A stretch of 63,916 bases of DNA, counting the filler, from Candidatus Sysuiplasma jiujiangense (GTDB lineage: Archaea > Thermoplasmatota > Thermoplasmata > Sysuiplasmatales > Sysuiplasmataceae), in assembly GCA_019721075.1 (NCBI GenBank). It is 4 parts of 3 records of this genome, joined end to end, with 100 filler letters (N's around TTAATTAATTAA, not from the genome) between each part and the next. Parts side by side here need not be neighbours in the genome. Positions count along the whole stretch, not along the records: positions 3,500 to 29,865 come from JAHEAD010000010.1; 3 more parts are not named here. One strand, given 5' to 3'. Of the stretch, positions 3,891 to 63,916 are shown in pieces. Position 1 is the stretch's first letter. Each line of letters opens with the position of its first letter. Below the pieces are notes generated by a model that did not search any database, had not been told where the DNA came from, and saw nothing but the letters and a program-made list of their open reading frames with translations. The position numbers and the translations under genes are program-made.

Positions 3891-4880
3891 GTGGACGTGA
3901 TTTCACTGTCGGCGGGCAGTTTAAAAGACGAAGACATCATGCAGTGGCTGCTTGAACCAAATCAGCCGTTTATAAGGTATCACGCACTGGTAGATCTTCT
4001 TGACCGTAAACCGTCTGATTCCGAGGCTGCTGAAGCACTTGGAAATGTTCCGAAAAGGGGCTGGGCGAAAGATATACTTTCATGCCAGACATCTCCCGGC
4101 TTATGGGAATCCGGCAGGGATCTATATCGCCCGAAATACACATCCACAATTTGGAGGTTCATTGTTCTATCCGACATGGGTGTGTCGGCTGAAGACAACA
4201 GAGTGAGGAAAACCTGTGAACTGTTCCTAAGGGATTATTCGCGCCCGGATGGTGGACTCGACTCACCGGGACCTGGCAGTGAGGTTTGCGTTACAGGCAA
4301 TCTTGCCAGGGCGCTAATTCAGTTCGGTTATGCAGAGGACCCGAGAGTCCGGTCAGCTGTGAGATGGCTGATCGAACATCAGATGGATGACGGAGGATGG
4401 CACTGTTTCCCCCGGATTGCGTTTGGCAGGGGAACACTTGACTGCTGGGAAGGCCTTAGCGCTTTCGCAGCCCTGCCTGAAAACAAATGGACTGCGGCCA
4501 TAAAACGCTGCGTGGACAGGGGTGCAGAATTTTATCTCGAACATGAGCTGTTCAAACAGGGCAGGAACTACCTGCCCTGGCTAAGGTTTCACTATCCTGT
4601 ACACTATTACTATGATATTCTGATAGGCCTCGACCTGATGACGAAATTCGGCTATTCTGATGACAGGAGACTCCGGCCCGCATTCGATATTTTGCGCAGG
4701 AAGAGGAGACCTGAGGGATTCTGGCTGATGGATGCAAATCATCCGGATCTGGGAAGAGGCGCTGGCTATCGCATGAAAAAGAGCAATGTGAAGCCGTTCA
4801 TACTCGAAATGGCTGGTGCTCCCAGCAAACTGATTACCCTCAGGGCGCTCGGCATCCTCAAGCGTGCAGAAGAAACCTGA
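3891..4880 (+). CDS. Uncharacterised prenyltransferase/squalene-cyclase-fold (alpha/alpha toroid) protein
   Basis: QW-like repeats (QMDDGGWHC, RRPEGFW), YRPKYTSTIW, FHYPVHYYYDIL and PSKLITLRAL; no DXDD cyclase motif seen; start uncertain. Confidence 0.7.
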   Translation: MDVISLSAGSLKDEDIMQWLLEPNQPFIRYHALVDLLDRKPSDSEAAEALGNVPKRGWAKDILSCQTSPGLWESGRDLYRPKYTSTIWRFIVLSDMGVSAEDNRVRKTCELFLRDYSRPDGGLDSPGPGSEVCVTGNLARALIQFGYAEDPRVRSAVRWLIEHQMDDGGWHCFPRIAFGRGTLDCWEGLSAFAALPENKWTAAIKRCVDRGAEFYLEHELFKQGRNYLPWLRFHYPVHYYYDILIGLDLMTKFGYSDDRRLRPAFDILRRKRRPEGFWLMDANHPDLGRGAGYRMKKSNVKPFILEMAGAPSKLITLRALGILKRAEET

Positions 4881-5003: not shown

Positions 5004-5879
5004 TCATTTGCCGGCAGATAAAACAAATATTGCATTCGGCACAATGGAAACCTCGGCAGGTGCATTGCCGACAGTTTCGCCGTCCATTTCCATTGGAATA
5101 GATTCGCCGGAAATGCGCACATTTTCCGCAGAAAAGCTTCGCACCTTTGGATCTTCGAGATAGCTGCCGTCGCGCAGTTTCGAAAATTTCCTCATAAGGC
5201 TTATGCGTGAAATTGCATCAATCGCATGAACATCCAGCCTGCCGTCAGAGATCGACGAATTTTTTGATGCGAGCATTCCTCCGCCGAAGTACTTCCCGTT
5301 CGCAACGACGATTTCAGTGAAAGGGCCGGCGGTCGAAAGGCCGTCATGTTCCAGCTCTACGGCATAGCTGCGCAGGTTCAGCATCTCCCTCATGACTGCG
5401 GCGTTGAACACATTTCTGCCGTGACCCTTTCTGCCCGCGTTCACCCTGGCCATCACCTTTGCTCCGAAGCCAAGTTCGAGTATATTCACAAAGTATCTGC
5501 TCCTGCCGCCCCATGCAACCCTGCCCAGATCGGCTCTGGAACGACTGCCTTCCTTCATAAGTTCAACAGCCTGATCTGCCGAACGGATACCGGTGGTTCT
5601 TGCAAAGTCCGAGCCTGTTCCTGCCGAAATCGCTACAAGGACTGTCTGCCTGTTCGCCAGCGACTGCACAGCTTCATTGATGGTTCCGTCGCCGCCGACA
5701 CACAGAAGATAGTCAAATTCCTCTTCCACCGCACGACGCGCCAACGCCGCCGCGTGCATTGGGCCGGAAGTGAATTCGAATGAAAAATTCAGCCCGCCGA
5801 GGCTCTTCATTGTCCTTGGCCAGATTTCAGACGCCAGGCCGCCTCCTGCCTGCGGATTTATCAGCGCGAATACCTTCAT
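5004..5879 (-). CDS. Diacylglycerol-kinase-family (YegS/DgkB-like) lipid kinase
   Basis: NPQAGGG, VGGDGTINE, GTGSDFAR, NGKYFGGGM and MDGE motifs. Confidence 0.92.
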   Translation of the reverse strand: MKVFALINPQAGGGLASEIWPRTMKSLGGLNFSFEFTSGPMHAAALARRAVEEEFDYLLCVGGDGTINEAVQSLANRQTVLVAISAGTGSDFARTTGIRSADQAVELMKEGSRSRADLGRVAWGGRSRYFVNILELGFGAKVMARVNAGRKGHGRNVFNAAVMREMLNLRSYAVELEHDGLSTAGPFTEIVVANGKYFGGGMLASKNSSISDGRLDVHAIDAISRISLMRKFSKLRDGSYLEDPKVRSFSAENVRISGESIPMEMDGETVGNAPAEVSIVPNAIFVLSAGK

Positions 5880-7240
5880 TTCAGCACGCTTCCAAAGTGC
5901 TTTTCCAGGGCGGCTTCAATTTTGCCCTTCTCCGATTCTCCGAGATCTTCGGAATAGATGGAAAGACCGAATCTCCTTCGCGCAATATCCTCGAAGGTCA
6001 TCGCACACTCGTACATGATGGAATAATCATAGGGATTGTCCCCAATCCCCTGCCTGACGTAGTCGACGACTGGCAGCCCCTTTGTCCTGATCTTGATGCC
6101 CGAGGCGCGTGCCAGCACCGATGCAACCTTTCTCGAGGCACTCCTGTAGTCCGTTAGCTTGCCGCCAAACACAGATATGAATTTGCCATGAACACTCACG
6201 GAAAATTCGCGTGAAACACTGCCGGCGCTCCTTCCCCGTCCGAACAGCGGTCTGATGCCGGCATAGCTTGTAAGTATGCTTTCATGCGTTACAGAAGGAA
6301 AAAGCCTTGCGGCACTCCGTATTATGTAGTCGGTGTGTTCCTCAGGTATGGAAAAATCGTCGGGTCTGTCGACAAATTCATCCGTTGTCCCAATGATTAC
6401 CACCCTTCCCCTAGGTATAACAAACATCTGTCTCCTGTCCAGATGCGAACGGAAGACAACCGCATCCTGCACCGGAACGACATTCCTGGCAACTACAATG
6501 TGGACGCCTTTGCTCAGACGGAATTCGCCGCCCTCCGTTATGCCGCACATTTCAGCGACCTTCATTGCCCAGGGACCGGCGCAATTGACAACGGCATCCG
6601 CCTCAATGGCGATTTCCCCGCCCGTGAACCTGTCCGCGAGTCGCGCAGTGAAACCCCGGCTGTTCTTGGAAACAGCTTTCAGCTCTGTATAGTTGAGGCA
6701 TCTGGCCCCGTTCTTCTGGGCAGAAGCAATATTGTGTATGACGAGAGATGCGTCGTCGGCCACCCCGTCCCAGTACGAGAAATACCCGCTGACTTTGTCA
6801 GGATATTTTCCGTTGTTTCTGTTCCATCTTGGTATACCTGGATGGCTACCCAGAATTCCATACAGTAACAGGCCTGCGCGGATAGAAGCCCGCCCCCATG
6901 AATAATCGTCCACAATTATGTCGAAATTCAGTTTCTTGACAAGATCCGTTTTGCGAAGCAGGTAATTTCGTTCCCTGAGCAGTTCCCTGACTAGCATGAA
7001 TTTGCCCTGGGAAATGTACCTCAGACCGCCATGGATGAGCTTGGAGGAGCCGGAACTGGTTCCGGATGCAAAATCTCCCTTTTCCACCAGCACGGGCTGC
7101 AGGCCGTTCTGCGCAAGTATGTTTGCAACGCCCGCACCGACTATGCCGCCACCGACAATCAGCACCCTCACCCTGGTTCCGGCAATTTCACCCAGCTGAA
7201 GTTTTCTGGTCCTGTAGGAAAATTCATTCACTGTGCTCAC
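5876..7240 (-). CDS. glpD: FAD-dependent glycerol-3-phosphate dehydrogenase/oxidase (GlpD/GlpA family)
   Basis: IVGGGIVGAG, DFASGTSSGSSKLIHGGLRY, SKGVHIVV, IGTTD, AGIRPL and GGKLTDYR. The likely start is GTG 7240, overlapping the upstream stop (GTGA); the track's 7480 start lies inside the upstream gene. Confidence 0.9.
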   Translation of the reverse strand: MSTVNEFSYRTRKLQLGEIAGTRVRVLIVGGGIVGAGVANILAQNGLQPVLVEKGDFASGTSSGSSKLIHGGLRYISQGKFMLVRELLRERNYLLRKTDLVKKLNFDIIVDDYSWGRASIRAGLLLYGILGSHPGIPRWNRNNGKYPDKVSGYFSYWDGVADDASLVIHNIASAQKNGARCLNYTELKAVSKNSRGFTARLADRFTGGEIAIEADAVVNCAGPWAMKVAEMCGITEGGEFRLSKGVHIVVARNVVPVQDAVVFRSHLDRRQMFVIPRGRVVIIGTTDEFVDRPDDFSIPEEHTDYIIRSAARLFPSVTHESILTSYAGIRPLFGRGRSAGSVSREFSVSVHGKFISVFGGKLTDYRSASRKVASVLARASGIKIRTKGLPVVDYVRQGIGDNPYDYSIMYECAMTFEDIARRRFGLSIYSEDLGESEKGKIEAALEKHFGSVLK

Positions 7241-8742
7241 CGGCCGGCAGAAAGAACCGGGTCCGCCAGGGTGCCGGCCAGTCTCTTCTTTCCTTCGTCC
7301 AGATAACCCGAAAGGAAGGAGCCAAGGCCATGGTGATGTGTTATCGAGCCGCCGTTTTCCATGAAACACCTGATGAGACCGTTTCGCACCGCCAGAAGAT
7401 CCTCTTCCTCGTTTCCCGACTTCATAATGATGGTGAAATACAGGCATCCGCCCGTTGTGTAGATATGTGAAAGATGACACATCATGGCACCGCGAAATCC
7501 CCTTTCACCGATTGCGTCTGAAAACCATTCCGATGCTGCGGCGTAAATGACAGGAATATCTTCCCAGCAGGCGGAGGTTTCAAGCGTATCGGTGACAATG
7601 CCCCTTTTCCACAGTTCGTTTGCTATGTACGGCCGCACGTAGCGTTCCCTGTACCACATGCGGGATGGGACAGGGCCTACCCATACAGAATCCGCAGGCC
7701 TTTCCTCAAGCGGCCTGTTGGAGACCATGACGAGCAAGGCGCCATTTTCAGCCCTTCTCATCTTGAGGTACCGCATGAGCAGTGATTTCCCGAGACTGCC
7801 GGAAGAACCGGCAAATCCGAACTTCGTCTCTAGTTCATCGGAGAGTCTGGCGACGGCTGGTATGGTCTTCATCTTTGAGAGTGATTCTACGCCTTCCCGG
7901 AATGTTCTGAAAACATATGCTGCAAAATGCCTGCGTTCTGGAAGAGGGAATACCTTCATTGAAACTTCAGTGATGACGCCGAACCTCCCCTCGCTCCCGG
8001 CTGCTATGTCCTTTGCCATAACACCGGCGGATTCTCTCGGCGATATCCTGTCCTGATATACGCCGTCGGATCTGTGAAGTTTGACTGAAAGCAACAGATT
8101 CTCAATATCCCCGTATTCATTGGATTCCTGTCCGGACGATTTTGTCGCAACCCAGCCACCAACGGTTGAAAAATCAAGTGATTCCGGGAAATGGCCTGCT
8201 GTAAATCCATGCCTGTTCAATTCATGCTCGATTTCAGCTCCTGTCAGACCTGCACCAAGAACAGCATAATTCCGCCTGAGTTCCATTTTCTTCATCCTGC
8301 CGGTATCAAGTGAAAGGACGTATCCTTCGCCTCCGAAACGGAGTCCTCCGGTGACGGAAGTACCGCCGCCGTAAATGACAATGCCAATGCCGTTTCTTCT
8401 TGCGGCTTCAAGCAGCCTGCCTGCATTCCCGCTATCTGGAAAGACAACCGCGTCCACGATTTTAGGGATCTTACCGTTTTTCAGTCCTAGCAGCTCTATG
8501 GATGATTTCCCCACCGAATGCATCAGCCGCACTTCGGCGGAATAGCTCACTTCAATGCCCGGCATCTCCGTTTCCAACAGTTTCTTCAGCCTGGGATCAG
8601 GCGGCTTATCATTGACGTCTGTCATTCCGTCCCAAACTGCTGTATTCCACGATGTGCCGGTGAGTTCCTCCAACATTCTGGCGGCATCCGCGGCCACCCG
8701 ATATCCCCTGCCGCCGCCGTAGAGGACGTTTACTCTGCCCAT
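7237..8742 (-). CDS. Alkyl-dihydroxyacetonephosphate-synthase-like FAD oxidoreductase (VAO/PCMH family)
   Basis: YGGGTSVTGG, GHFPESLDFSTVGGWVATKSSGQ, GSEGRFGVITE, DTLETS, CHLSHIY, CLYFT and GGSITHHHGLG. Confidence 0.88.
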   Translation of the reverse strand: MGRVNVLYGGGRGYRVAADAARMLEELTGTSWNTAVWDGMTDVNDKPPDPRLKKLLETEMPGIEVSYSAEVRLMHSVGKSSIELLGLKNGKIPKIVDAVVFPDSGNAGRLLEAARRNGIGIVIYGGGTSVTGGLRFGGEGYVLSLDTGRMKKMELRRNYAVLGAGLTGAEIEHELNRHGFTAGHFPESLDFSTVGGWVATKSSGQESNEYGDIENLLLSVKLHRSDGVYQDRISPRESAGVMAKDIAAGSEGRFGVITEVSMKVFPLPERRHFAAYVFRTFREGVESLSKMKTIPAVARLSDELETKFGFAGSSGSLGKSLLMRYLKMRRAENGALLVMVSNRPLEERPADSVWVGPVPSRMWYRERYVRPYIANELWKRGIVTDTLETSACWEDIPVIYAAASEWFSDAIGERGFRGAMMCHLSHIYTTGGCLYFTIIMKSGNEEEDLLAVRNGLIRCFMENGGSITHHHGLGSFLSGYLDEGKKRLAGTLADPVLSAGR

Positions 8743-8816
8743 CGCCCGTGTATTGGTATTCCAGCTTATAATACCGGCATTGTATCAGCGCTGCGCTTGC
8801 TTCTCACCATGCCGCC

Positions 8817-9245
8817 TCAGCCGGCAAGTTTCCTTTCGGCATCCCTTACGCAGGGAAAAACCATTGTGTGCTCCTTCTGGAAATGGTTTCTGAGAAATTC
8901 GGACAGCCCGGCGGAGAGTTCGGCGACATTTGCATTCGCTGCATCAATGGACTTTTTCAGTTCCTTTATGAGGCGGTCGATGTCCGCATGCTCCTGAAAG
9001 ACCTCAATGGATTCCCACGCTCCTTCACGCCCGAATGCCCTGATAAGCTCTCTGAGCAGCGTCGCTTCCTCGTCAAGCATGTGCTGGATAAGCGTTTCGT
9101 CCATTCCCCTTATCAAGTCCATTGCCTTTTCCGTCTCACCGGATTCCAGCAGCACGCCCAGTTCGACAAGTGTGGAGCGAATCCTCTCGTGCTCTGTTTC
9201 GAGGAGAGCGATTAGCTCATTCATGTCAAGATCCCTTGGCCTCAT
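8817..9245 (-). CDS. Hemerythrin/HHE cation-binding domain protein
   Basis: EHERI...HMLDEEATL...EHADI...HFQKEHTMVFP pattern; start taken at MRPR (9245). Confidence 0.85.
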   Translation of the reverse strand: MRPRDLDMNELIALLETEHERIRSTLVELGVLLESGETEKAMDLIRGMDETLIQHMLDEEATLLRELIRAFGREGAWESIEVFQEHADIDRLIKELKKSIDAANANVAELSAGLSEFLRNHFQKEHTMVFPCVRDAERKLAG

Positions 9246-9364
9246 ACAGCCGAATAATGAAGACTGAACTATTATTAATTTGACACAGCAGCCGGCAAGT
9301 GATACAGAAGTGATTCCTGAAAAGGAGGGCAAACATTATGGTGAGTTCAGAGTAATGGTGGAAC

Positions 9365-10585
9365 ATGCGTATCATCATCTACACCGGCAAAGGCGGTGTC
9401 GGCAAAACATCGGTGTCGGTCGCGACGGCAATGAAATGTGCGGAGAGGGGCCTCAGAACAATAATCATAAGCACTGATTCGGCTCACAGCCTCTCCGACA
9501 GCGTTGATTTCCAGATCGGACCTGCAATCAAGAAAATATCTCAAAATCTTGATGGTCTGGAGATAGACATACTCAGGGAACTTGAGGAGAACTGGAACGA
9601 TATCAGAAAATATATTTTTTCGTTCTTTTCGTCGCAGGGAATGGATGAAATATCGGCAAAGGAAATGGCCATATTTCCGGGAATGGAATTCATTGCCGCA
9701 CTTTTCTATCTCGGGCGTTTTTACGCCAATGATGAATATGATGTTGTCATAGTCGACACCGCCCCCACAGCCGATACGCTCAGGCTGCTCAGCTTTCCTG
9801 ATGTTGCCGACTGGTACTTCCAGCATTTCTACGGGCTGATGAAGAATTTCATACGGCTGGCAAGAGTAACGGTAGGCAAAGTCGTATCGATACCTCTCCC
9901 CCCAGAACAGGTGATGCAGGAATTCGAAAGGTTCAACTTGAGAATCAAGAACGTGAGGCAGATACTCACGAATCCTGAGATAACATCGGTGCGGCTCGTC
10001 ACCAATCCTGAAAAGATGGTTATAAGCGAGACAATGAGGGCTTACACCTACCTTTCGCTCTACAATCTCACAGTGGAAGCACTCATAGTGAATAGGGTTT
10101 ACAAAAAAAATACGTCTGAAAGCAATTCGATCAAGCTGAAGGAACAGGAGAACTACATCGATGTCATCGAGAGTGCTTTCCAGCCTATGAAGATTTTCTA
10201 CTCCAGGCTGTTCCCGCATGAGGTTGTCGGAAAGGAGGCGGTGAAGAAGCTTGGCGACGAGCTGTTCGGCGACACCGATCCGTCCATCACCTATGCAAAG
10301 GAAAATCCGATGAAAATCATATCAAGGAAGGGAAACACAAGCATTCAGCTCAGGGTTCCATTTGCAAATGCAAGCGAGCTAGAGTTATATACGACGAGAG
10401 ACACTATCATAGTTGGTGTCGGCCAGTATCGGCGCACAATTGCGCTTCCGCTCGGATTGTACGGAAGAGAGATTGCATCTGCCGAGATATCCGGCGGCAC
10501 ACTGACGGTAAAATTCAGGGAGGATGAAGATGGAGGAAGAAAAAAAGAGCGAAGTTTACGAAGAAAAGGCAAAGGAAATGATTGA
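9365..10585 (+). CDS. ArsA/GET3-family ATPase with C-terminal HSP20/alpha-crystallin-like domain
   Basis: GKGGVGKT, STDSAHSLSD, DTAPTADTLRLL and NPEKMV; C-terminal beta-sandwich (LRVPF...IIVGVGQYRRTIALP...GTLTVKF). Confidence 0.9.
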   Translation: MRIIIYTGKGGVGKTSVSVATAMKCAERGLRTIIISTDSAHSLSDSVDFQIGPAIKKISQNLDGLEIDILRELEENWNDIRKYIFSFFSSQGMDEISAKEMAIFPGMEFIAALFYLGRFYANDEYDVVIVDTAPTADTLRLLSFPDVADWYFQHFYGLMKNFIRLARVTVGKVVSIPLPPEQVMQEFERFNLRIKNVRQILTNPEITSVRLVTNPEKMVISETMRAYTYLSLYNLTVEALIVNRVYKKNTSESNSIKLKEQENYIDVIESAFQPMKIFYSRLFPHEVVGKEAVKKLGDELFGDTDPSITYAKENPMKIISRKGNTSIQLRVPFANASELELYTTRDTIIVGVGQYRRTIALPLGLYGREIASAEISGGTLTVKFREDEDGGRKKERSLRRKGKGND

Positions 10586-12243: not shown

Positions 12244-12594
12244 CTATGCGGTGCGTGCCTCTATGCTGTCCCGCAGCCACTCCACAAGGAAATCCTTCAT
12301 CGGCGGGCCAAGATCGATTCTCAGCTTTTCCAGCGCCTTCACACCTTTGCTGGTCGTTCTGTAATACTTGTGTATCCTGCCGTGTTCTATCCTCGGCTCC
12401 TCAGTGAGAAGACCGTCGCTCATCAGCTTGTGGAGCACGGGATAGAGCTTTCCGGGACTGAGGACATGCTGGTGCATCTTTTCGGCATCCAGCAGATCCA
12501 TCCCTGAAATCTGAGACTTGGAACATTTCCAGAGCACATAGGGCCTGAACAGCCCTCTCTCAAGGTACTTTGTCATTTCTTCCATTTCAATCAT
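12244..12594 (-). CDS. PadR-family transcriptional regulator
   Basis: SPGKLYPVLHKLMSDGLL...HKYYRTTSKG; start re-assigned to about 12594 or 12585. Confidence 0.85.
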   Translation of the reverse strand: MIEMEEMTKYLERGLFRPYVLWKCSKSQISGMDLLDAEKMHQHVLSPGKLYPVLHKLMSDGLLTEEPRIEHGRIHKYYRTTSKGVKALEKLRIDLGPPMKDFLVEWLRDSIEARTA

Positions 12595-12610
12595 CCTGGT
12601 AATATCTATT

Positions 12611-12645
12611 ACAGATAACTGATATTGATATCTGTTACTGATATT
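12611..12645. promoter_or_regulatory. AT-rich repeat cluster upstream of padR-mntH, candidate operator
   Basis: ACAGATA-N11-TATCTGT inverted repeat (12611-12635) and an ACTGATATT direct repeat (about 12618 and 12637). Confidence 0.4.
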
Positions 12646-13039
12646 TATTACATTCCGCCCGGATGCATTCCCCCAGTCTGCAGGGGCTGTGAGCCGGGAT
12701 GCGACATAAATTACACTCACTATCGCACAGGGATAAGTGTCATTGCCGTCACCATAAGCACTGTTTTCCGATGGTTGTGTTCAGCATTTCAGATGAAGCC
12801 GAAACAGGAACAGAAGACTTGCGGTCGAACATGTTAGAGTGTGGTCTGCTGATGAGTTGAAGCAGAGGAGGAAATAGCCCCGGCTGTTCGATGCCGGGAA
12901 TAAATCTGCGTATGGCGCAGACAATTATGCCGATGCCATGGAATTTGCAAAAATTCATATTCTGTCTTTATGTCCTTAGTCTGAGTCTGCAAAAAAACTG
13001 TCCGGGCGAAAAAATCGTGCAGGCCAGCGATGGGCGATT

Positions 13040-32889: not shown

Positions 32890-32975
32890 GCCCTGGTAGT
32901 GTAGTGGCCTATCATCCAAGCCTGTCGGCATCAGGCAGATAGCTTGGGACTCGGGTTCAAATCCCGGCCAGGGCG
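32890..32975 (+). tRNA. tRNA-Asp(GTC) with a 13-nt intron at 37/38 (32928-32940)
   Basis: GCCCTGG/CCAGGGC acceptor, CAAGC/GCTTG anticodon stem, GTC at 32924-32926 and GGTTCAAATCC T-arm; the intron forms a BHB (CTGT:GCAG helix, bulges CG|G and AT|A); no encoded CCA. Confidence 0.93.
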
Positions 32976-33547
32976 CAGCCTGGATTTCCGTGCTTATCTG
33001 TATAACAAAAAAGCGTTTCTAACGTCAACTTAGACGCAACGCAGTCGAACGCGGCGATAAACATCAGCTAAATTAACTGGCATGGCTTTTCCCGACGAAT
33101 ACAAGTCGTCTACAGCTTCGTGATAGTCTGATCGCCGGCATTGCAGTCATCGCGGAGATGAATACCGTGGTCATCGGTTCCGTATTCAATGCGGGCGCGA
33201 TCGCGGTAACGGGCAACTCTCTTCCCGCGCACCGCACTTGCCGGACGTCCTCCTCCGCATATTTATCCTGCGGTGTGTTGAATTTGCACATTGTCAGGGG
33301 ATGTGTCCATCCTGAAGACTCCGGCATCTTCCGTTCCACTGTTGGGACGCGTTTCAGGTTGAACAGTAGACAAAAGGCCGGTCAAAACGAATTGCCTCTA
33401 CATATCGCATTCTATTGCCCATATGTTTCATTCACATCCCATCTCCCTGGATTGGCGGTCCGTTCCGAAACTGTGCGGACTATTTCAGCTTTCGATAATT
33501 GTCAAATAAAATGCCTATAAGCCGGGCTAAGATTGGTTGCGAATACA

Positions 33548-57013: not shown

Positions 57014-57381
57014 CCGGCGGGCGTTCAGCAATTCTCGCGCATGCCTCATCCACGATATCCCTGATGGAATTGAGCATGTCCGCGAGTTCGTTGATCTGTG
57101 CCTCGTCATATGAGGCCCAGTCCACAGACTTCTTCGGTCTTGCTTCATATGTGAATGTGCCGTTCCTGACCGAGGATGCTACCTCCCTCAGTTCCTTCGA
57201 CCGGAGGTGTCTCCCTTTCCTGGTGCTGTCTTCACTCAATGAACGGGTAATGCACAAAGGCCTTTTTCTGCTTTGCGAACGATTCATTCACAAACGTTAA
57301 ATTTTCGAGTGCATACGTGTGCCCATAGCAGCCGGTGTGACGGCCTGTTTCCGGGCTTCGGAGGAATTTTGTCCCAAAGCC
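57014..57381 (-). mobile_element. Diverged second copy of the IS left end with transposase start (ORF 57014-57239)
   Basis: Aligns to 30398-30768; the first 99 bp are identical, then substitutions and a one-codon indel follow; terminus GGCTTTGGGACAAAA on the minus strand. Confidence 0.82.
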
Positions 57382-57580
57382 TAGTGGTCTGACTTGCGCC
57401 TTATTGTCCTCTGGCAATTCGGCAGCGGCATTTGTTTATTCTCCGGCGGTATCCGGACGATAAATCGGAGCAGTGCGGACTGCTGTTTGCCGATTCTGTG
57501 AGTCCGCACATAAAATTCTGTCCCCTTCAATCAGGTAAAATGTTTAACCACTGCCATAAGACTCCCGCCTCCGGAACGTG

Positions 57581-58900
57581 TCAGCAGGGTGAGGCAACAG
57601 CGTCACTGTTCCAAAGCCTGTCCCTGTCCTTCCTGGGATGGAATCGCTCCAGCAGTCCGCGGCCCGCGAGCTGCCCTACCAGATATGCCGAATATGCCGG
57701 TGCTCCCGTCGCCCCGGGTGAATTGTAGTTCAGTATGTGCAGCGATTCTCCGCCTTCTAACACGACTGCCTCGGGAACGAAACCGTTTCTGTCAATCAGG
57801 TTGCTCCTTATGCCTCCAAATCCTCTGTCTCCGAGCATGCCGGGTTCAAGAAGCGGAATGAATTTCCTCACCCGTTCGCACATGGCATCCTTTGAAAGTG
57901 AGCTCCTCCATTCCGATCTTGCAAGTGAAACGAATTCCCTGCTGATCGCAAGTTTTGCCTTCGGGAGGAGCGGTCTCTCGAACGCCTTTGAAATCAGCTG
58001 CCTGAATCCTGCGGTCATGCCTGCGTACTGATAGGGTCCGGCAACCATTGCGGCGTTGGGGCCGATTTCTCTTCCTCCGTCATGCCGTATGACAAAATGC
58101 GGATCAAGGAATGGAAATTCCGAATGTTCGGGCACAGCGTATATGTTATGCCTTACTGACGGCAGCCGTCCCGGAAGAACCTTCCAGTAATCTCCCCTGA
58201 AGTGAAGATCCGTGTATTGCATCCCCGCCCCCATCCAGTGCGCAATGTCCACCGCATTTCCGCCGGCTGCATTGATGAGCAGATCTGATGTGATAATCGC
58301 ATCACCGCCATCCCTCCTGAGCGAAAGAATGGTTTTGCCTTCACTGCTGTGAACACCGGTCAATCTGCTGTTCAGCAGGAGGCGGAGTCCGTTTCCTTCG
58401 CTTATTGACTTCACCGCCGCTGTGAAGGCACCGTAGTCGACAGCAGTATCAGTGATGCACAGAAGCGCTGCCTCGCACTTCACATCCGGTTCGATGGCGC
58501 CCGCACCATTTCTGTCAAGAAGAAGAAGTTCCCCCTCCTTCATTCCATTTGCCATGCCCCATTTCATGTAGCGTTCGAGTCCCGGTACGCCCTCGCTTCC
58601 AGGGCTGACCTCGAGCGTTCCATGCTGCCTCCAGGGCAGGGAGGCGATTTCAGACAGCCGCTTCCACATTCCGTAGGATTTCTGTGCAGAAAGGGCAAAG
58701 ATCCTCTTCCTTGCAGGGTCGAGATAGAATGGCCTGTGGACAACACCGGTGTTGCGTGAAGATGCGTGAACCGCAACATTTGCCTCCATTTCCACCAGCG
58801 CAACGCTGCACTCAAAAAGCGATGTCAGCCAGTAGGCAATGCATGTTCCAAGGACACCTCCGCCTACGACAGCGACATCGAAATGCCTCTCACCCTGCAC
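57581..58900 (-). CDS. FAD-dependent oxidoreductase, L-2-hydroxyglutarate oxidase (LhgO)-like
   Basis: VVGGGVLG, HASSRNTGVVH, FRGDYW, FPFLDPHF, IGPNA and NSPGATG. Confidence 0.85.
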   Translation of the reverse strand: MQGERHFDVAVVGGGVLGTCIAYWLTSLFECSVALVEMEANVAVHASSRNTGVVHRPFYLDPARKRIFALSAQKSYGMWKRLSEIASLPWRQHGTLEVSPGSEGVPGLERYMKWGMANGMKEGELLLLDRNGAGAIEPDVKCEAALLCITDTAVDYGAFTAAVKSISEGNGLRLLLNSRLTGVHSSEGKTILSLRRDGGDAIITSDLLINAAGGNAVDIAHWMGAGMQYTDLHFRGDYWKVLPGRLPSVRHNIYAVPEHSEFPFLDPHFVIRHDGGREIGPNAAMVAGPYQYAGMTAGFRQLISKAFERPLLPKAKLAISREFVSLARSEWRSSLSKDAMCERVRKFIPLLEPGMLGDRGFGGIRSNLIDRNGFVPEAVVLEGGESLHILNYNSPGATGAPAYSAYLVGQLAGRGLLERFHPRKDRDRLWNSDAVASPC

Positions 58901-58947
58901 GATAGGCGAATTGTCCCTCCAATATAGATTGATTGCCGGGGCGTGTT

Positions 58948-59655
58948 TCAGATCGCAAAATAGGCATTTCTCACTGAATCGTTCTCTTCGGCTTCCTCCT
59001 TCGTTCCCGAAAATACTATCCTGCCATGATCGAGGACGAGCAACCTGTCGGCAAGTCCGGCAAATTCGATATTCTGTTCCGAAACAAGCATCGGTAACCC
59101 CTCCTTCTTCAGGGTGGAAAGCACTTCAATGATCTTTTCGGTGAACAGCGGAGAGAGACCGCTTGACGGCTCGTCCATTACAAGCAGTTTCGGTTCCGCA
59201 ATGATTGCCCTTGCAACCATCAGCATCTTCCTCTGACCGCCGCTCAACGCCGAAGCCCTCTGCCTGTCGAATGCCAGGAGATCCGGAAACAGTCCGTGCA
59301 CCCTTTCGATCTTCTCGCCGAATCTGCTGCCGCTTCTCAGCGAACTCATCAGCAGGTTTTCCCTTACTGTCATGGACGGATAGATGCTGCTGTCCGATAC
59401 GTACGACAGGCCGAGTCTGGCCCTCCTGTAGACGGGAAGCTTCGTCACATCCTCCCCATCGAACATAACCGATCCTGAAAAAAGGGGGAGCATCCCTGCA
59501 ACGGCCTTCAGCAGCGTTGTTTTCCCTGACCCGTTTGAGCCCAGAATGACAACTGTTTCCCCGGCCCCTACGCTCAATGTGCAGTCCCAGGTGACCTGTA
59601 TTGCACCATAGCCGGAGGAGACACCTCTAATTTCCAACAGTTCTTGATGCTCCAA
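58948..59655 (-). CDS. livF: Branched-chain amino acid-type ABC ATPase (LivF-like)
   Basis: GSNGSGKTT, LSGGQ, DEPSSGLSP and SEQN. Confidence 0.9.
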   Translation of the reverse strand: MEHQELLEIRGVSSGYGAIQVTWDCTLSVGAGETVVILGSNGSGKTTLLKAVAGMLPLFSGSVMFDGEDVTKLPVYRRARLGLSYVSDSSIYPSMTVRENLLMSSLRSGSRFGEKIERVHGLFPDLLAFDRQRASALSGGQRKMLMVARAIIAEPKLLVMDEPSSGLSPLFTEKIIEVLSTLKKEGLPMLVSEQNIEFAGLADRLLVLDHGRIVFSGTKEEAEENDSVRNAYFAI

Positions 59656-60382
59656 GATAGACCTCCATTACCCTTTCGTCATGCACCGCATCCTCGAAAC
59701 TTCCTTCGAAAATCTTCCTGCCCGCATCAAGCACCACGACGTCGTCCGTGACTCTCCTGATGAAGCTCATTACATGCTCGACAACAACCACCGCATCGAT
59801 ATTCTTTGCAATTTCCCTGAGGAGTTTTACGACGCTGTCCATCTCCGACGCACCGAGACCCGCCGCAAGCTCATCTATGAGCAGCACACGCGGATTCGTT
59901 GCCAGCGCCTTTGCAAGGTCAAGCATTTTCTTCTGACCGGTGTTCAGTGTTTCCGCTTTCTTCTCTGCGAAGGATGAGAGGCCGGTAAGTTTCAGTATCC
60001 CCTCCACGGCGGACTCCATGTCCCTGCCGGTCGGATCCCGCTTTCCCTGACCGAAAAGGACAGCAATCTCAACATTTTCCATTACGGTGAGTCCGCCGAA
60101 CGGATGGGGTATCTGGAACGTCCTGTTTATTCCGAGGTGCGATCTTCTGTGCGGCGGTAGTGACGATATATTTTTCCCCTCGAAAAGAATTTCCCCCTCG
60201 TCCGGAAAAAGCAGACCGGAAACGATATTGATGAGCGTCGTCTTGCCGGAACCGTTCGGGCCTATGAGTGCAAGTATTTTCCCCTTTTCGACGCCGACAT
60301 GCACATTGCTCAGTGCCTCCATCTTTCCGAATGTCTTTGTTATTCCCCTGGCTTCAAGCAGAACAGTGCTGTTTTCCTTCAT
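59627..60382 (-). CDS. livG: Branched-chain amino acid-type ABC ATPase (LivG-like)
   Basis: GPNGSGKTT, RTFQIP, DELAAGL, VEHVM and EVYLG. Confidence 0.9.
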   Translation of the reverse strand: MKENSTVLLEARGITKTFGKMEALSNVHVGVEKGKILALIGPNGSGKTTLINIVSGLLFPDEGEILFEGKNISSLPPHRRSHLGINRTFQIPHPFGGLTVMENVEIAVLFGQGKRDPTGRDMESAVEGILKLTGLSSFAEKKAETLNTGQKKMLDLAKALATNPRVLLIDELAAGLGASEMDSVVKLLREIAKNIDAVVVVEHVMSFIRRVTDDVVVLDAGRKIFEGSFEDAVHDERVMEVYLGASRTVGN

Positions 60383-61332
60383 GAAATGCCTCCGTAATGT
60401 TTGCGTATTATGGGGACAATTCCATCCGGTATGAACAGTATCAGCAGCACAAGCAGCAGACCGAATATTATGAGCAGCAGATTGCTGAAATAGAGTATGA
60501 GCACCTCATAGACGGCGAACAGTATTATTGCGCCTATTACCGGGCCGAATGCCGTCCCCCTTCCGCCGAACAGAACAAAGACTATGATGAGCACAGAATA
60601 GTCGGTAAGCGAAAATACCGCTTCAGGATAGAAGAAACCGAGGTACCAGCCGAACAGGCCGCCTGCAAGTCCCGAAAAAAATGCTGAGAGCAGCCATGCA
60701 TAGTTTCTGTAACGCAGGCTGTTTACGCCTGCAAGCTCGACAGCAAAACGATCTTCCCTTATCGCCTTCAGTGCAATTCCAAAATACGATCTGGCCAGAA
60801 GCACCACTGTGAGTGCAGACACCACAGCAACAGCCGCGGTCACCGCATAGTCCACATTGGGCGAATATGCCTGAATGAATGAAATTCCATATGGGCCCCC
60901 TGTAATGGAGGTCAGCGACGTGTTGCCGATTGCGAGATAGAGGACCTCGAACGCTGCAAGGCTTGCTATGGCAAAATATGCTCCGGACAGCCTCAGGAGC
61001 GGCGTGAAGACTAGTGCAAGGACGCAGGAAAGAAATGTGCCGACGAGCAGCGCAATTCCCACCGGGAACGAATAATGCGCTATCATTATTGCCGTTCCGT
61101 ATGCGCCGACAGCAAAAAACGCACCGAATCCAAACGGCAGATAACCGGTGAAGCCGTAAACGATGTTCAGCGCGTCGGCAAGTATGACAAAGACAGCGAG
61201 TTCCATCAGTATGCTCTGGTTGCCTGTCACAACCGGACCGAGCGTGAAGATCGCCGCCAGCGGGACAGCTATTTTGACCGCATCCGTTTTGATGCCCCTT
61301 CCTCCGGAGAGAAAAAATCCCCTAAAATTCAC
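60379..61332 (-). CDS. livM: ABC permease (LivM-like)
   Basis: GFTGYLPFG, LRLSGAYFAIAS, AIRED and GGRGTAFGPVIG; GTG start after a GGAGG RBS. Confidence 0.9.
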   Translation of the reverse strand: MNFRGFFLSGGRGIKTDAVKIAVPLAAIFTLGPVVTGNQSILMELAVFVILADALNIVYGFTGYLPFGFGAFFAVGAYGTAIMIAHYSFPVGIALLVGTFLSCVLALVFTPLLRLSGAYFAIASLAAFEVLYLAIGNTSLTSITGGPYGISFIQAYSPNVDYAVTAAVAVVSALTVVLLARSYFGIALKAIREDRFAVELAGVNSLRYRNYAWLLSAFFSGLAGGLFGWYLGFFYPEAVFSLTDYSVLIIVFVLFGGRGTAFGPVIGAIILFAVYEVLILYFSNLLLIIFGLLLVLLILFIPDGIVPIIRKHYGGIS

Positions 61333-62203
61333 GGACCTTCCTCCCGAGAAGGCCGGTAGGCCTGACAAGTATTATTGCTATGAGCACAACGAACGGGACC
61401 AGGGACGAGATGTTGGGCAGATAGAGTTCGGTGTAGCCGTACGCAAAGGCAAAAACCACTCCACCGGCAAGCGTTGCCAGCGGATTACCCAGTGCACCGA
61501 TGATTATGATGGCAAACGAAATGAGCGTAAAGGTTGCGCCTATGTCCGGGGAGGTGGGATAACTGATGAACGAGGAAAACGCCCCGGCAATTGCAGCGAG
61601 CGTCACTCCCGTGGAAAACGCAATCGCCGAAACTGTTCCTGCATTTACGCCATTGGCTGCGGCCTCATCCCTGTTTATCATAAGTGCCCTTGTCTGCAGT
61701 CCGAGTCTGGTGTGGTAGAGATATGCGTAAATTACCAGTATGAATAAAACTGAAACTGCCGCAGTGACAACCCATGCAAAGGGGATTGTGCTTCCTGCAA
61801 TGCTCACGTGCAGCGGCCTGAACGAGCTGTAGGGAAGGGTCCTGTAATCAACACCGAAAAACTGAATCGCCAGCCCTTCCATGATGAAGGAGAGGCCGAA
61901 GAAGAGGATGAACGAACTCATTTCGGGATCTCCTGATTTGCGGAGCCTGGGGATGAGAAGATAATAGAGCGGTATGCCTGCGAGGAAGAAAACAGGCACA
62001 ATGAAAAGCAGTGCCATGAGCGGATTGACCGAATAGCTTGACAGCAGCAGAATGGCGGCATAAGAGCCGAACACAATGAACTGTCCGTGCGCGAGATTCA
62101 CGATCCTCATCACACCGAATATGAGATTGAGACCCAGCGCCGCCAGCGAAAAGAAAGCGGCGTAAATCAGCGACGTGATGAAGGCGTCAAGGAACAGCTG
62201 CAT
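61322..62203 (-). CDS. livH: ABC permease (LivH-like)
   Basis: GLNLIFGVMRIVNLAHG, TRLGLQTRA and RPTGLLG. Confidence 0.92.
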   Translation of the reverse strand: MQLFLDAFITSLIYAAFFSLAALGLNLIFGVMRIVNLAHGQFIVFGSYAAILLLSSYSVNPLMALLFIVPVFFLAGIPLYYLLIPRLRKSGDPEMSSFILFFGLSFIMEGLAIQFFGVDYRTLPYSSFRPLHVSIAGSTIPFAWVVTAAVSVLFILVIYAYLYHTRLGLQTRALMINRDEAAANGVNAGTVSAIAFSTGVTLAAIAGAFSSFISYPTSPDIGATFTLISFAIIIIGALGNPLATLAGGVVFAFAYGYTELYLPNISSLVPFVVLIAIILVRPTGLLGRKVREF

Positions 62204-62239
62204 GTCAGAGGCACTTTATCCGAAATTCGAGCCCTGAGT

Positions 62240-63688: not shown

Positions 63689-63916
63689 GTTTTCCCCTCT
63701 TTATATTTTAAAAGATTTTCGGGTGTTCCTGCGCGGTCCATGGCATCCAGGAGTAAAATACGTTTCCCTCACCGATGAGGTTAAACGGTGATACAGTGCG
63801 CTGCGCTTACTGCAGCCGTATCTCCGAAGACGATCGTAACAGAAGTACTAGGATCGAATGAGTATATATAAGGAAAACAGGAAAAGCCAGCATTACACGC
63901 AGCCTCATCGACTCGC

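Follow-up and report, generated by a model that had tools for sequence, protein, structure and literature searches.

An operon for an AGPS-family flavoenzyme, a GlpD homologue and a lipid kinase in Candidatus Sysuiplasma jiujiangense, with a possible role in alkylglycerol breakdown

The acid-mine archaeon Candidatus Sysuiplasma jiujiangense carries a single operon in which a flavoenzyme of the alkyl-DHAP synthase (AGPS) family is encoded together with a GlpD-type FAD-dependent glycerol-3-phosphate dehydrogenase homologue and a soluble lipid kinase. Homology places this operon in a widespread, putative prokaryotic glycerolipid module that is not peculiar to archaea. The AGPS-family flavoenzyme and the soluble DAGK-type kinase form its fixed core, and a GlpD that looks generic is usually recruited between them. 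What the three genes do together is suggested here only tentatively: we lean, with somewhat less than even confidence, toward a pathway that breaks down or salvages alkylglycerols or other 1-O-substituted glycerols through alkyl-DHAP.

The operon and its products

The window, that is, the whole 63,916-nucleotide stretch of DNA analysed, contains three co-directional genes on the minus strand: the AGPS-like FAD enzyme (7237..8742; 501 aa, ATG start), the GlpD homologue (5876..7240; 454 aa, GTG start) and a kinase of the soluble YegS/Rv2252/BmrU (DAGK_cat) family (5004..5879; 291 aa, ATG start). ORFs, translations and the sequence itself bear out the two 4-nt overlaps of the original prediction, a GTGA at 7237..7240 (GlpD GTG 7240-7238, AGPS TGA 7239-7237) and an ATGA at 5876..5879 (kinase ATG 5879-5877, GlpD TGA 5878-5876). 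An alternative GlpD frame of 534 aa in the ORF listing begins within the AGPS gene; the overlapping GTG is the likely start, because relatives align to the 454-aa protein from residues 2-6 and the FAD-binding GGGxxG motif lies from residue 30. A TATA-box-like TATTATAA can be read on the minus strand at 8766..8773, its centre some 27 nt ahead of the AGPS start codon; by the general position rule for archaeal TATA boxes it is a candidate promoter, from which the operon transcript would be leaderless or have a short leader. Upstream of the trio are a hemerythrin-like gene, an ArsA/Get3-like ATPase, MntH, a PadR regulator and an MFS transporter, and downstream are a weak squalene-cyclase-repeat protein and a methyltransferase; as originally noted, no glpK, glpB or glpC is adjacent. 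The operon was probably acquired laterally by this genome from a neighbouring Thermoplasmata family.

The first gene product has the Pfam domains FAD_binding_4 and FAD-oxidase_C. A phmmer search of the PDB matches it to Dictyostelium AGPS (2uuu, E 3e-61) and guinea-pig AGPS (4bby, 4.7e-50), against 3.8e-10 for the best match outside AGPS, and its predicted structure (pLDDT 86.3) fits AGPS 4bc9 with a VIA Z of 38.3 (rmsd 2.2 over 483 residues), compared with 30.8 for D-lactate dehydrogenase. The N-terminal part of the model is aligned by AGPS chains only (4-501, versus 48-500 for lactate dehydrogenases). Grouping with D-lactate/glycolate dehydrogenases, which the original prediction had named as the contrary outcome, was thus not found, and sequence and model together indicate a true AGPS-family member. 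All four AGPS motifs reported earlier are present (VARLSD at residues 297-302, CHLSHIY at 422-428, CLYFT at 433-437 and GGSITHHHGLG at 464-474), and an alignment of 19 homologues, 10 archaeal and 9 bacterial, shows no variation at R299, D302, H423, S425, H426, Y428, Y435 and H469-471.

The likeness to eukaryotic AGPS/ADPS (EC 2.5.1.26) includes the fold over nearly the full length with its N-terminal part, the FAD-binding PCMH domain, the HHH loop (His469-471), the catalytic Tyr (Y508/Y578, here Tyr435) and the first Arg (R352/R419, here Arg299). However, identity is only about 25%, the N-terminal extension is missing, and the second Arg has shifted: the position of Dictyostelium R447, listed as catalytically important (PMC3509576), is occupied by Ala, with an Arg four residues earlier, a replacement that counts against breakdown. 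The archaeal enzyme also lacks FAR and GNPAT partners, sits instead with GlpD and a lipid kinase, and may work in the opposite direction. Non-redox AGPS chemistry fits, because no iron-sulfur or ETF partner is found in the neighbourhood of the AGPS-like gene.

The GlpD-like protein, encoded by the sole copy in this genome, has a Pfam DAO domain (167 bits), DAO_C not being found by Pfam; it scores 254 bits against NCBIfam G3P dehydrogenase PRK12266, under the cut-off of 360. Its PDB matches include 3da1 (E 1.9e-54) and E. coli GlpD 2qcu (9e-44), and it is identical to the latter at R54, H233, R254, R317, R332 and K354, positions that we take to bind glycerol-3-phosphate. GlpD-type enzymes are expected to be specific for the sn-3 series, so that bacterial or eukaryotic 1-O-alkylglycerols would fit better than archaeal G1P isoprenoid ethers. 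The trio-linked GlpDs form no separate clade; they are mixed with other orthologues in a 32-row clade (SH-aLRT 99), and these others, from AGPS-less genomes, occur singly or next to GDPD or a phospholipase-C-like PF04185 phosphoesterase. The window's GlpD itself is sister (support 93) to two of these orthologues from AGPS-less genomes. The interleaved tree and these neighbourhoods point to free glycerol-3-phosphate as the substrate, which speaks against breakdown; by phylogeny this GlpD is not a dedicated lipid enzyme, which weakens the earlier interpretation.

The kinase, likewise the sole copy, has the Pfam domains DAGK_cat and YegS_C, exceeds the TIGR00147 cut-off (122.1 versus 118.65 bits) and matches DgkB/BmrU/YegS chains in the PDB with E values of 5e-15 to 2e-09.

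Distribution and known relatives

Among 401 genomes sampled from the same class, the AGPS-like gene is present in 76 and the kinase in 73, with both in 66; ten have AGPS without kinase and seven the reverse. Six of the ten have an AGPS-like gene from a distinct, deep branch (f15), and two belong to one genus (g63) of family f10. The order AGPS, GlpD, kinase on one strand recurs at 46 of the 76 AGPS-like loci, which makes the arrangement more than chance. AGPS is directly followed by the kinase at 14 other loci and by GlpD at four (three cut by contig ends), while 11 have neither and one is arranged otherwise; GlpD was not found in three AGPS-bearing genomes. The synteny extends to bacteria: at 43 of 80 actinobacterial loci the kinase is directly downstream of the AGPS-like gene and GlpD is upstream on the opposite strand, and a single Calditrichaeota protein is an AGPS-like enzyme fused to GlpD in operon order.

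The framing of the trio as an archaeal pathway is weakened by this, and the operon is not new as a kind, since a similar cluster has been published for Pseudomonas aeruginosa (PMC8151288). This cluster, PA3026-PA3025-PA3024-PA3023, is controlled by the AraC regulator GliR/PA3027 and assigned by its authors to glycerolipid metabolism (PMC8151288); its genes run in the same direction and encode an AGPS-like oxidase and, after it, a GlpD homologue and a YegS-like lipid kinase. Compared by its description, it adds an FGGY kinase and the AraC activator, both missing from the window's operon, and it is co-regulated with phospholipase C (PMC8151288), echoing the GlpD/phosphoesterase pairs in our class genomes. 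According to the same paper, deleting the operon had no phenotypic effect on the media used (PMC8151288), an observation on the side against breakdown.

The mycobacterial parallel drawn in the original prediction proved to be real. In the region that we take to be Rv2249c (glpD1)-TetR-Rv2250A/Rv2251 flavoprotein-Rv2252, the same three families are neighbours, and locus L152 of a Mycobacterium sp. has an AGPS-like gene and kinase that overlap by 4 nt and, divergent to them, GlpD and TetR genes, with TetR lying between GlpD and AGPS-like. Unlike the window's operon, this version has a divergent GlpD with a DAO_C domain and an intervening TetR, and identity is about 33-35%. In the archaeal families f25, f22 and f10, the AGPS-like proteins fall into one group with those of actinobacteria (75 rows, SH-aLRT 99).

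Substrate and direction of the pathway

From what was observed (protein families, operon structure, conservation, and which genes occur together and side by side), we infer a scheme of activation, oxidation and then cleavage. The kinase would phosphorylate the free primary hydroxyl to give alkyl-glycerol-3-phosphate, and the GlpD-type enzyme, if it accepts a 1-O-substituted substrate, would oxidise C2 to alkyl-DHAP, passing electrons to the quinone pool. The AGPS-like enzyme would then run the second AGPS half-reaction in reverse: the Tyr base would take the C1 proton, a flavin-N5 adduct would form, the HHH loop would help to expel the alcohol, and water would free DHAP for glycolysis. Against this, AGPS is described as practically irreversible. 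Its mechanism is ping-pong, with the alcohol joining an intermediate that is bound to the flavin (PMC3509576), and reversal of that half-reaction would free the alcohol from alkyl-DHAP. The long-chain alcohol would be carried by SCP2 and oxidised by Fe-alcohol and aldehyde dehydrogenases. As a functional analogue only, alkylglycerol monooxygenase (AGMO) would act on the same substrate class, likewise with a subsequent fatty aldehyde/alcohol oxidation step; it is an oxygen- and tetrahydrobiopterin-dependent membrane hydroxylase without homology to the trio genes, and a 2021 review calls it the only known alkylglycerol-degrading enzyme (PMC7911779).

The breakdown direction originally proposed gains circumstantial support from neighbouring genes and from the acyltransferases missing in this genome (see below). 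Families f18, f19 and f34 have 33 loci between them, and 22 of these show SCP2 and/or Fe-alcohol dehydrogenase within 7 kb, the arrangement taking at least four different forms; aldehyde dehydrogenase is found at ten loci (nine in f18 and the tenth, L084, in f22), 2-hydroxyacid dehydrogenase at seven and a TPP enzyme at six. This genome has an SCP2-FeADH-ALDH operon on a separate contig (C6), where genes for acyl-CoA ligase and acyl-CoA dehydrogenase adjoin it. On the other side, the SCP2 module occurs in 104 of the 401 genomes, 50 of them AGPS-less, and is linked to AGPS-like genes at none of 43 loci of families f25, f22, f10 and f15 and none of the 80 actinobacterial loci.

Database pathway maps read the same genes in the synthetic direction, and so do the authors of the P. 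aeruginosa paper (PMC8151288), who favour alkylglycerone phosphate synthesis and propose a route to it from glycerol for PA3024-PA3026. GlpD would supply DHAP, an acyltransferase would make acyl-DHAP, the AGPS-like enzyme would put a fatty or isoprenoid alcohol in place of the acyl group to form alkyl-DHAP, and the kinase would recycle the backbone. On this view, the archaeon would produce some ether lipids of the bacterial (G3P) type, or would join alcohols that it has scavenged to new glycerol. The retained fold and catalytic set (Tyr, HHH, first Arg) agree with this, and Fe-alcohol dehydrogenase could in principle make alcohol from aldehyde. However, neither PF01553 (PlsC/GNPAT) nor PF02660 (PlsY) has a match in this 97%-complete genome, so that the classical substrate acyl-DHAP is without an evident source. 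The aldehyde dehydrogenase beside the alcohol dehydrogenase drains aldehydes to acids, a normal archaeal GGGP synthase is present, and the TetR of the actinobacterial version is a repressor type more typical of inducible breakdown operons. The usual biosynthetic partners FAR and GNPAT, not found near the window's gene, occur fused to a distant AGPS (P0124, 26% identity). In Myxococcus xanthus, a bacterial AGPS homologue (MXAN_1676) lies in a lipid operon with a FAR-GNPAT fusion protein, not with GlpD and kinase, and genetics there are reported to show ether-lipid synthesis, a point in favour of the synthetic reading; on the contrary side, the same preprint, on plasmalogen origin, states that no evidence of the plasmalogen pathway was seen in Archaea (bioRxiv 10.1101/2025.10.10.681575). 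Synthesis thus seems unlikely here.

We give similarly low odds to a non-lipid role, in which the AGPS-like enzyme, perhaps as a dehydrogenase or lyase, has as its substrate a small, phosphorylated compound that resembles glycerol, stands at the DHAP level and is prepared by the kinase and glycerol-phosphate dehydrogenase, with the DAGK-type kinase replacing an FGGY kinase. The f15 branch of AGPS-like genes keeps the HHH, H.SH.Y and R..D motifs in six of six rows; at its loci L101-L103, the next genes encode a CCG Fe-S protein, a GlpA-like dehydrogenase carrying a BFD domain, Pyr_redox_2, DUF1667 and an FGGY kinase. This company suggests small soluble substrates or redox chemistry, at least in that branch, and also counts against alkylglycerol breakdown. 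The apparently generic GlpD and the pairing of FGGY and YegS-like kinases in P. aeruginosa (PMC8151288) point the same way. So does the lack of glpK: none exceeds the cut-off in this genome (best 27 versus 590 bits), and by profile search the genome does not encode ordinary glycerol catabolism through glpK and glpD. The earlier argument from glpK stands to that extent but loses weight, as a strong glpK is absent from seven of ten GlpD-bearing class genomes checked, with or without AGPS. Against a non-lipid role, no Fe-S or ETF partner occurs in this operon or in the 46 loci of the same order, SCP2 adjoins the cluster in three families, and the kinase follows AGPS rather than GlpD, as the 14 loci without an intervening GlpD and the three GlpD-less genomes illustrate. 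Moreover, lipids are the known substrates of the DAGK_cat/YegS family, the mycobacterial Rv2252 being reported as a diacylglycerol kinase (Owens 2006, cited in PMC3229680).

That report, which also counts against alkylglycerol breakdown, is in keeping with membrane-lipid recycling, whereby the kinase re-phosphorylates diacylglycerol- or archaeol-like lipids, GlpD burns glycerol phosphate and the AGPS-like enzyme clears stray acyl- or alkyl-DHAP, under co-regulation and not as a linear pathway. GlpD orthologues beside GDPD and phospholipase-C-like genes, and activation of phospholipase C PlcA by GliR (PMC8151288), are likewise compatible. That AGPS-like and kinase genes are near-obligate companions and neighbours across two domains, with 4-nt overlaps, argues for a tighter functional tie, and we regard mere recycling as quite improbable. 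If alkylglycerol breakdown, our tentative preference, is the true job of the trio, the module would degrade rather than make ether-linked glycerol lipids.

Layout of the operon and its surroundings

The operon consists of three minus-strand genes packed together by overlaps of 4 nt: a gene for a protein resembling alkyl-DHAP synthase (AGPS; 7237-8742, 501 aa), a gene for a protein resembling GlpD (5876-7240, 454 aa), whose GTG start overlaps the TGA stop of the AGPS-like gene, and a kinase gene (5004-5879, 291 aa), whose ATG overlaps the TGA stop of the GlpD-like gene. Reading of the sequence thus confirms the gene limits and overlaps of the trio described in the original prediction. An alternative 534-aa frame for the GlpD-like gene begins within the AGPS-like gene; the 454-aa form is likely, because relatives align from its residues 2-6. 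About 27 nt 5′ of the AGPS-like ATG there is a TATA-like TATTATAA (8766-8773, minus strand), a candidate promoter element; the archaeal TATA box of a leaderless transcript sits at about that distance from the start codon.

Domain scans of the window region indicate that the flanks of the operon are unrelated to glycerol: upstream are genes for hemerythrin-like, ArsA/Get3-like, MntH, PadR (12244-12720, 3.5 kb from the operon) and MFS proteins, and downstream are a weak cyclase-repeat protein and a methyltransferase. No FGGY kinase and no AraC or TetR regulator was found in the scanned region around the operon. The ArsA/Get3-type ATPase (9365-10585, plus strand) has a C-terminal HSP20-like domain and is divergent from the hemerythrin-like gene (8817-9332). 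The cyclase-repeat protein (3891-4880, plus strand; 329 aa) is convergent on the kinase gene, and its match to the squalene-hopene-cyclase C-terminal repeat is weak (27.7 bits). Elsewhere in the window, an 87-nt tRNA-Ala(GGC) (32890-32976, plus strand) with its anticodon at position 38 is over standard length and may contain an intron; in Rfam, no family reaches its gathering score in the window.

The genome (2.29 Mb in 55 contigs, 97% complete) carries the operon on contig C2 of 93,765 bases. The window is made of concatenated contigs with 264 N, and 57014-63916 is contig C30. The stretch is present in 20 DNA runs of 7 studies, with no RNA run listed; these come from metagenomes of mine drainage, of mine tailings and of sediment, apart from one run that is labelled only 'metagenome'. 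The closest homologues bear Thermoplasmataceae and Oxyplasma names.

The three proteins

From its sequence and modelled fold, the first protein of the operon is assigned as a true member of the AGPS family (EC 2.5.1.26). It matches PF01565 (83.9 bits) and PF02913 (54.9 bits), each above cut-off, corresponding to a PCMH-type FAD-binding domain and a FAD-oxidase C-terminal domain. In a phmmer search against all PDB chains, the E-values were 3e-61 for Dictyostelium AGPS, 4.7e-50 for guinea-pig AGPS and 3.8e-10 for the best non-AGPS chain. An AlphaFold model built from alignment A1, which comprises 10 archaeal and 9 bacterial homologues (19 rows; pLDDT 86.3), retrieved AGPS chains at all of ranks 1-37 in Foldseek (TM 0.77-0.86). 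By VIA-align it was superimposed on AGPS over 483 residues (model residues 4-501; Z 38.3, rmsd 2.2) and on D-lactate dehydrogenases over residues 48-500 (Z 30.8), so that N-terminal residues 4-47 align to AGPS alone. Clustering with D-lactate/glycolate dehydrogenases had been named beforehand among the outcomes that would tell against the original prediction, and both the search and the superposition place the protein with AGPS.

The four AGPS motifs on which the original prediction was based are all found in the translation. Residues R352, Y508 and R447 of the Dictyostelium enzyme are listed as important for catalysis (PMC3509576), and they correspond in the phmmer alignment to R299, Y435 and A374, the Dictyostelium numbers being the aligned chain numbering plus 3. 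Y435 in CLYFT, equivalent to the catalytic tyrosine base (Dictyostelium Y508, guinea pig Y578), and R299 in VARLSD, equivalent to Dictyostelium R352 and mammalian R419, are each invariant in 19/19 archaeal and bacterial rows of A1. The HHH loop (H469-H471) is likewise invariant in 19/19 rows; the pattern [ST]HHH is shared by 107 of the 115 AGPS-like rows versus neither of the two GlcD-like outgroup rows. The arginine corresponding to R447 is not kept. At this site A, G or S is found in each of the 10 archaeal rows of A1, and an Arg stands four residues before it; the canonical Arg is present in each of the 9 bacterial rows, which lack an Arg at the earlier place. This shift is limited to one group of the AGPS-like tree (group A, described below). 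Both places face the same side of helix 370-379 in the model, and the shifted Arg may be a compensating relocation. A predicted complex of the AGPS-like protein with the kinase (alignments A1 and A3) had a score of 0.03 and a mark of 0.32, which speaks neither for nor against binding.

The kinase has the two domains DAGK_cat (PF00781, 83.4 bits) and YegS_C (PF19279, 110 bits), and it passes TIGR00147, the model for YegS/Rv2252/BmrU lipid kinases, with 122.1 bits over 118.65. Its mycobacterial homologue Rv2252 has been reported as a diacylglycerol kinase (PMC3229680).

The GlpD-like protein matches PF01266 (DAO) with 167 bits, and in the PDB 3da1 (1.9e-54) and E. coli GlpD 2qcu (9e-44). It stays below the NCBIfam equivalog PRK12266 (254 bits versus a cut-off of 360), the match stopping at profile position 378 of 508, and no match to DAO_C (PF16901) was found in it. 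The phmmer alignment has identical residues at E. coli GlpD R54, H233, R254, R317, R332 and K354, which we take to be the substrate site. Which substrate is then to be expected? Orthologues 46-54% identical to this GlpD are found in genomes without AGPS. Eight such loci were scanned: in three (L201, L206 and L215) GlpD adjoins a glycerophosphodiester phosphodiesterase (GDPD), and in two (L202 and L203) a single unannotated gene of about 195 aa separates it from the gene for a protein of the PF04185 phospholipase-C/acid-phosphatase family. A tree of 83 GlpDs has a 32-row clade (support 99) in which the trio-linked copies interleave with GDPD- or phosphoesterase-linked and stand-alone copies, and the window GlpD is sister (support 93) to both phosphoesterase-linked ones. 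Therefore, the same enzyme serves several contexts, all yielding glycerol phosphate, which favours free glycerol-3-phosphate as a substrate, perhaps among others, over a dehydrogenase specialised for lipids. GlpD holds its place in a conserved trio, but by phylogeny not as a dedicated lipid enzyme, because the trio-linked copies form no separate clade. The lack of a neighbouring glpK, pointed out in the original prediction, extends to the genome itself, with nothing over cut-off (best 27 bits versus 590), but this is not special to the trio: among 10 other genomes, glpK is strong in two (both far from the trio), gives a 363-bit match in one and is absent or weak in seven. The genome has one copy each of GDPD, GGGP synthase, GlpD and the kinase.

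Distribution, neighbourhoods and origin

The class was sampled with 401 genomes, the present one included, and AGPS-like proteins were collected at E <= 1e-40; as related genomes are dependent, all counts are descriptive, with no statistical test. AGPS-like genes are present in 76 genomes, the kinase in 73 and the GlpD-like gene in 110. AGPS-like gene and kinase occur together in 66 genomes, the former only in 10, the latter only in 7 and neither in 318; all three genes are found in 63, and GlpD without an AGPS-like gene in 45. The three window proteins were aligned to the regions 7 kb each side of all 76 AGPS-like matches outside the genome itself. The order AGPS-GlpD-kinase on one strand recurs in 46 of these 76 loci, in families f18, f19, f25, f22 and f10. 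A further 14 have the kinase adjacent to the AGPS-like gene with no GlpD between, four have AGPS-GlpD with no kinase in the locus (three of them cut by a contig end), 11 have neither partner and one is rearranged. From co-occurrence and synteny together, AGPS and the kinase can be regarded as a fixed pair, of which GlpD is a frequent third member. Two AGPS-like genes, L052 (G260:C1:1670211-1671440) and L043 (G161:C25:20848-22347), are broken by an in-frame TAA and TGA, respectively, and may be pseudogenes or sequencing errors; in genome G260 a GlpD match is also absent.

A bacterial scan with one genome per species, using the bacterial-only alignment A2, gave 80 loci, all in Actinomycetota. 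In 43 of them the kinase directly follows the AGPS-like gene and GlpD lies upstream on the opposite strand (Mycobacteriales 26, Propionibacteriales 5, Kitasatosporales 4, Streptosporangiales 4, others 4). Both GlpD and kinase are missing from 27, of which 23 are in Thermoleophilia, and the remainder have GlpD only (6), the kinase only (2) or GlpD elsewhere in the locus (2). The mycobacterial parallel drawn in the original prediction is real: in a Mycobacterium sp. locus, GlpD and TetR are followed by AGPS-like and kinase genes that are divergent from them and overlap by 4 nt. The mycobacterial neighbour GlpD has DAO_C, unlike that of the window. Thus, in both archaea and bacteria an AGPS-family enzyme that retains its catalytic machinery is linked to a lipid-type kinase, and usually to a glycerol-phosphate dehydrogenase as well.

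In-frame fusion of AGPS and GlpD was found in none of the 52 class loci with both genes on one strand, where the long open frames come from frame overlap. When the whole database was searched for longer proteins, only two emerged, each a single sequence and weak evidence, and possibly an assembly or gene-calling error: P0123, a 1127-aa protein from a Calditrichaeota MAG in which an AGPS-like part (33% identical) is fused to GlpD in operon order, and P0124, a 2461-aa chain of ACBP, DegT, FAR, acyltransferase and a distant AGPS (26% identical).

Trees were quick IQ-TREE runs (LG+G4, SH-aLRT only) with several long branches flagged, and the AGPS-like tree was rooted with the genome's own GlcD-like paralogues. 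Group A comprises families f18, f19 and f34 and the window (34 rows, support 100). A 75-row clade (support 99), whose internal order is unresolved, holds f25, f22 and f10 with all 40 actinobacterial rows, and f15 is a deep branch. As archaeal and actinobacterial rows fall in one clade, the module crossed the domain boundary at least once, in either direction. The window protein lies in a 20-row clade (support 100) with 19 f18 rows, and neither the AGPS-like gene nor the kinase occurs in any of 9 other genomes of its family, or of 3 of its genus. The simplest reading of these trees and counts is that the operon would have been gained laterally from an f18-like lineage; alternatively, the genes may have been lost in the relatives. 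Composition (GC 0.53 for the operon, 0.47-0.54 for the window) does not stand out and thus gives no support for a recent transfer.

For the wider neighbourhood, all ORFs of 77 loci were clustered and recurrent clusters were scanned against Pfam. Within 7 kb, an SCP2 lipid carrier is found in 21 loci, an Fe-alcohol dehydrogenase in 20, an aldehyde dehydrogenase in 10, a 2-hydroxyacid dehydrogenase in 7 and a benzoylformate-decarboxylase-like TPP enzyme in 6. Among the 33 loci of f18, f19 and f34, 22 have SCP2 and/or Fe-alcohol dehydrogenase, in at least four arrangements (same strand upstream, same strand downstream, convergent, and SCP2 alone divergent); none of the 43 loci of f25, f22, f10 and f15 or the 80 actinobacterial loci has either gene. 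The genome itself has an operon for SCP2, Fe-alcohol dehydrogenase and aldehyde dehydrogenase on contig C6 (L219:5953-11615), 56-61% identical to the counterparts in genome G133. Genes for a 2-hydroxyacid dehydrogenase and the TPP enzyme, divergent from it, border this operon at one end, and homologues of acyl-CoA ligase and acyl-CoA dehydrogenase border it at the other; the whole is reminiscent of a route of alpha-oxidation or mandelate type that handles hydrophobic acids. Of the 401 genomes, 104 have the SCP2 gene; 54 of these are among the 76 AGPS genomes, and 50 are not. Being wider than AGPS, it belongs to a general module often beside AGPS and kinase and is no private part of theirs.

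A different association is seen in f15, whose AGPS-like gene keeps the HHH, H.SH.Y and R..D motifs in 6/6 rows. In the three loci long enough for the order to be read (L101-L103, in G196, G114 and G085; e.g. L102:6920-14408), the genes after it encode a CCG iron-sulfur protein, a GlpA-like dehydrogenase with BFD [2Fe-2S], Pyr_redox_2, DUF1667 and an FGGY kinase, and the cluster is an analogous association from non-orthologous parts.

Possible function and meaning

Modules of this kind are already in print for Pseudomonas and visible in mycobacterial annotation. The P. aeruginosa operon comprises PA3026 (oxidase), PA3025 (GlpD homologue) and PA3024 (FGGY kinase), and next to it comes PA3023, for a YegS-like kinase; GliR activates this operon along with the phospholipase C PlcA, its deletion had no phenotype on the media tested, and the authors propose a path from glycerol to alkylglycerone phosphate, calling the function open (PMC8151288). 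Like PA3026-PA3023 and Rv2249c-Rv2252, the window clusters an AGPS-like gene with a GlpD homologue and a YegS-type kinase; unlike them, it shows no FGGY kinase and no AraC/TetR regulator in the region scanned. For Rv2251, titles and abstracts disclosed no functional study. A Black Sea study mentions archaeal Agps matches in a single sentence (PMC11868695), and a 2025 preprint reports no evidence of a plasmalogen pathway in Archaea (bioRxiv 10.1101/2025.10.10.681575). Searches found no literature joining alkylglycerone phosphate synthase, archaea and glycerol-3-phosphate dehydrogenase, and none pairing an AGPS term with a Thermoplasmatales name among the matches listed; section 11 of a paper on archaeal G3PDH (PMC11962113) does not mention the trio. 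The operon can therefore be filed as belonging to a known but uncharacterised kind of gene module. New here are the counts across the class, the recognition of AGPS and kinase as a core that recruits a generic GlpD, the SCP2/alcohol/aldehyde dehydrogenase linkage, the moved Arg of group A and the likely lateral origin in this genome.

What does the module do? We tentatively prefer a reading in which it breaks down 1-O-substituted glycerols. The kinase would activate such a glycerol, GlpD would make a carbonyl at C2, rendering the C1 proton acidic, and the AGPS-like enzyme would reverse the alcohol-adding half of the ping-pong AGPS mechanism (PMC3509576), water completing this step to give DHAP and the alcohol. 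So costly a route would exist because ethers cannot be hydrolysed. It would explain why a lipid carrier and alcohol and aldehyde dehydrogenases gather beside operon-type loci, why no acyl-DHAP-forming enzyme is needed and why an electron-accepting partner is missing beside the AGPS-like gene. Its weak points are that GlpD looks generic, that the canonical AGPS reaction is held to be irreversible, that the mycobacterial kinase homologue is reported to act on diacylglycerol, and that the FGGY/Fe-S versions in other lineages hint at small or redox substrates. With the last point in view, the AGPS-like protein might instead be a non-lipid DHAP-level enzyme, which seems unlikely for a partner of a lipid-type kinase. 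Loose lipid recycling appears quite improbable for a fixed AGPS-kinase pair.

A further alternative is biosynthesis of alkyl-DHAP, the domains of P0124 being the biosynthetic set. Against this alternative, the typical partners, DHAP acyltransferase and fatty acyl reductase, were not found near the operon, and PF01553 and PF02660 acyltransferases have no match in the genome; PF07993 matches are unspecific, with control matches in 14/14 genomes. We consider this direction, too, unlikely.

As to which glycerols would be broken down, a GlpD-type enzyme is expected to take the sn-3 series, which makes alkylglycerols of bacteria or eukaryotes more probable substrates than the G1P ethers of archaea. 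Of the proposed archaeal ether-lipid pathway, the breakdown of ether lipids is thus retained as the preferred reading, but archaeal ethers as its target are not favoured.

To our knowledge, oxygenase-free degradation or recycling of ether lipids by microbes is an open question. Alkylglycerol monooxygenase, which depends on oxygen and biopterin, was called the only known alkylglycerol-degrading enzyme in a 2021 review (PMC7911779). An AGPS-family enzyme linked to a kinase in two domains, and in some lineages to alcohol and aldehyde oxidation, is a concrete candidate for an oxygenase-free route, testable with three recombinant proteins. The fuller claim is rather doubtful: that the operon and the SCP2/alcohol/aldehyde dehydrogenase genes constitute the first oxygen-independent cleavage of glycerol ether lipids, in which kinase and GlpD would convert alkylglycerol to alkyl-DHAP and a reversed AGPS-family enzyme would convert this to alcohol and DHAP. 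If it is true, Thermoplasmata, actinomycetes including mycobacteria, and pseudomonads could use ether lipids of neighbours or hosts as food, or recycle the chains of these lipids; if the module instead builds G3P-type ether lipids in an archaeon, it bears on the lipid divide. The module is found in about a fifth of the sampled genomes of the class and in many actinomycetes, and for its AGPS-like proteins the database label alkyl-DHAP synthase may mislead.
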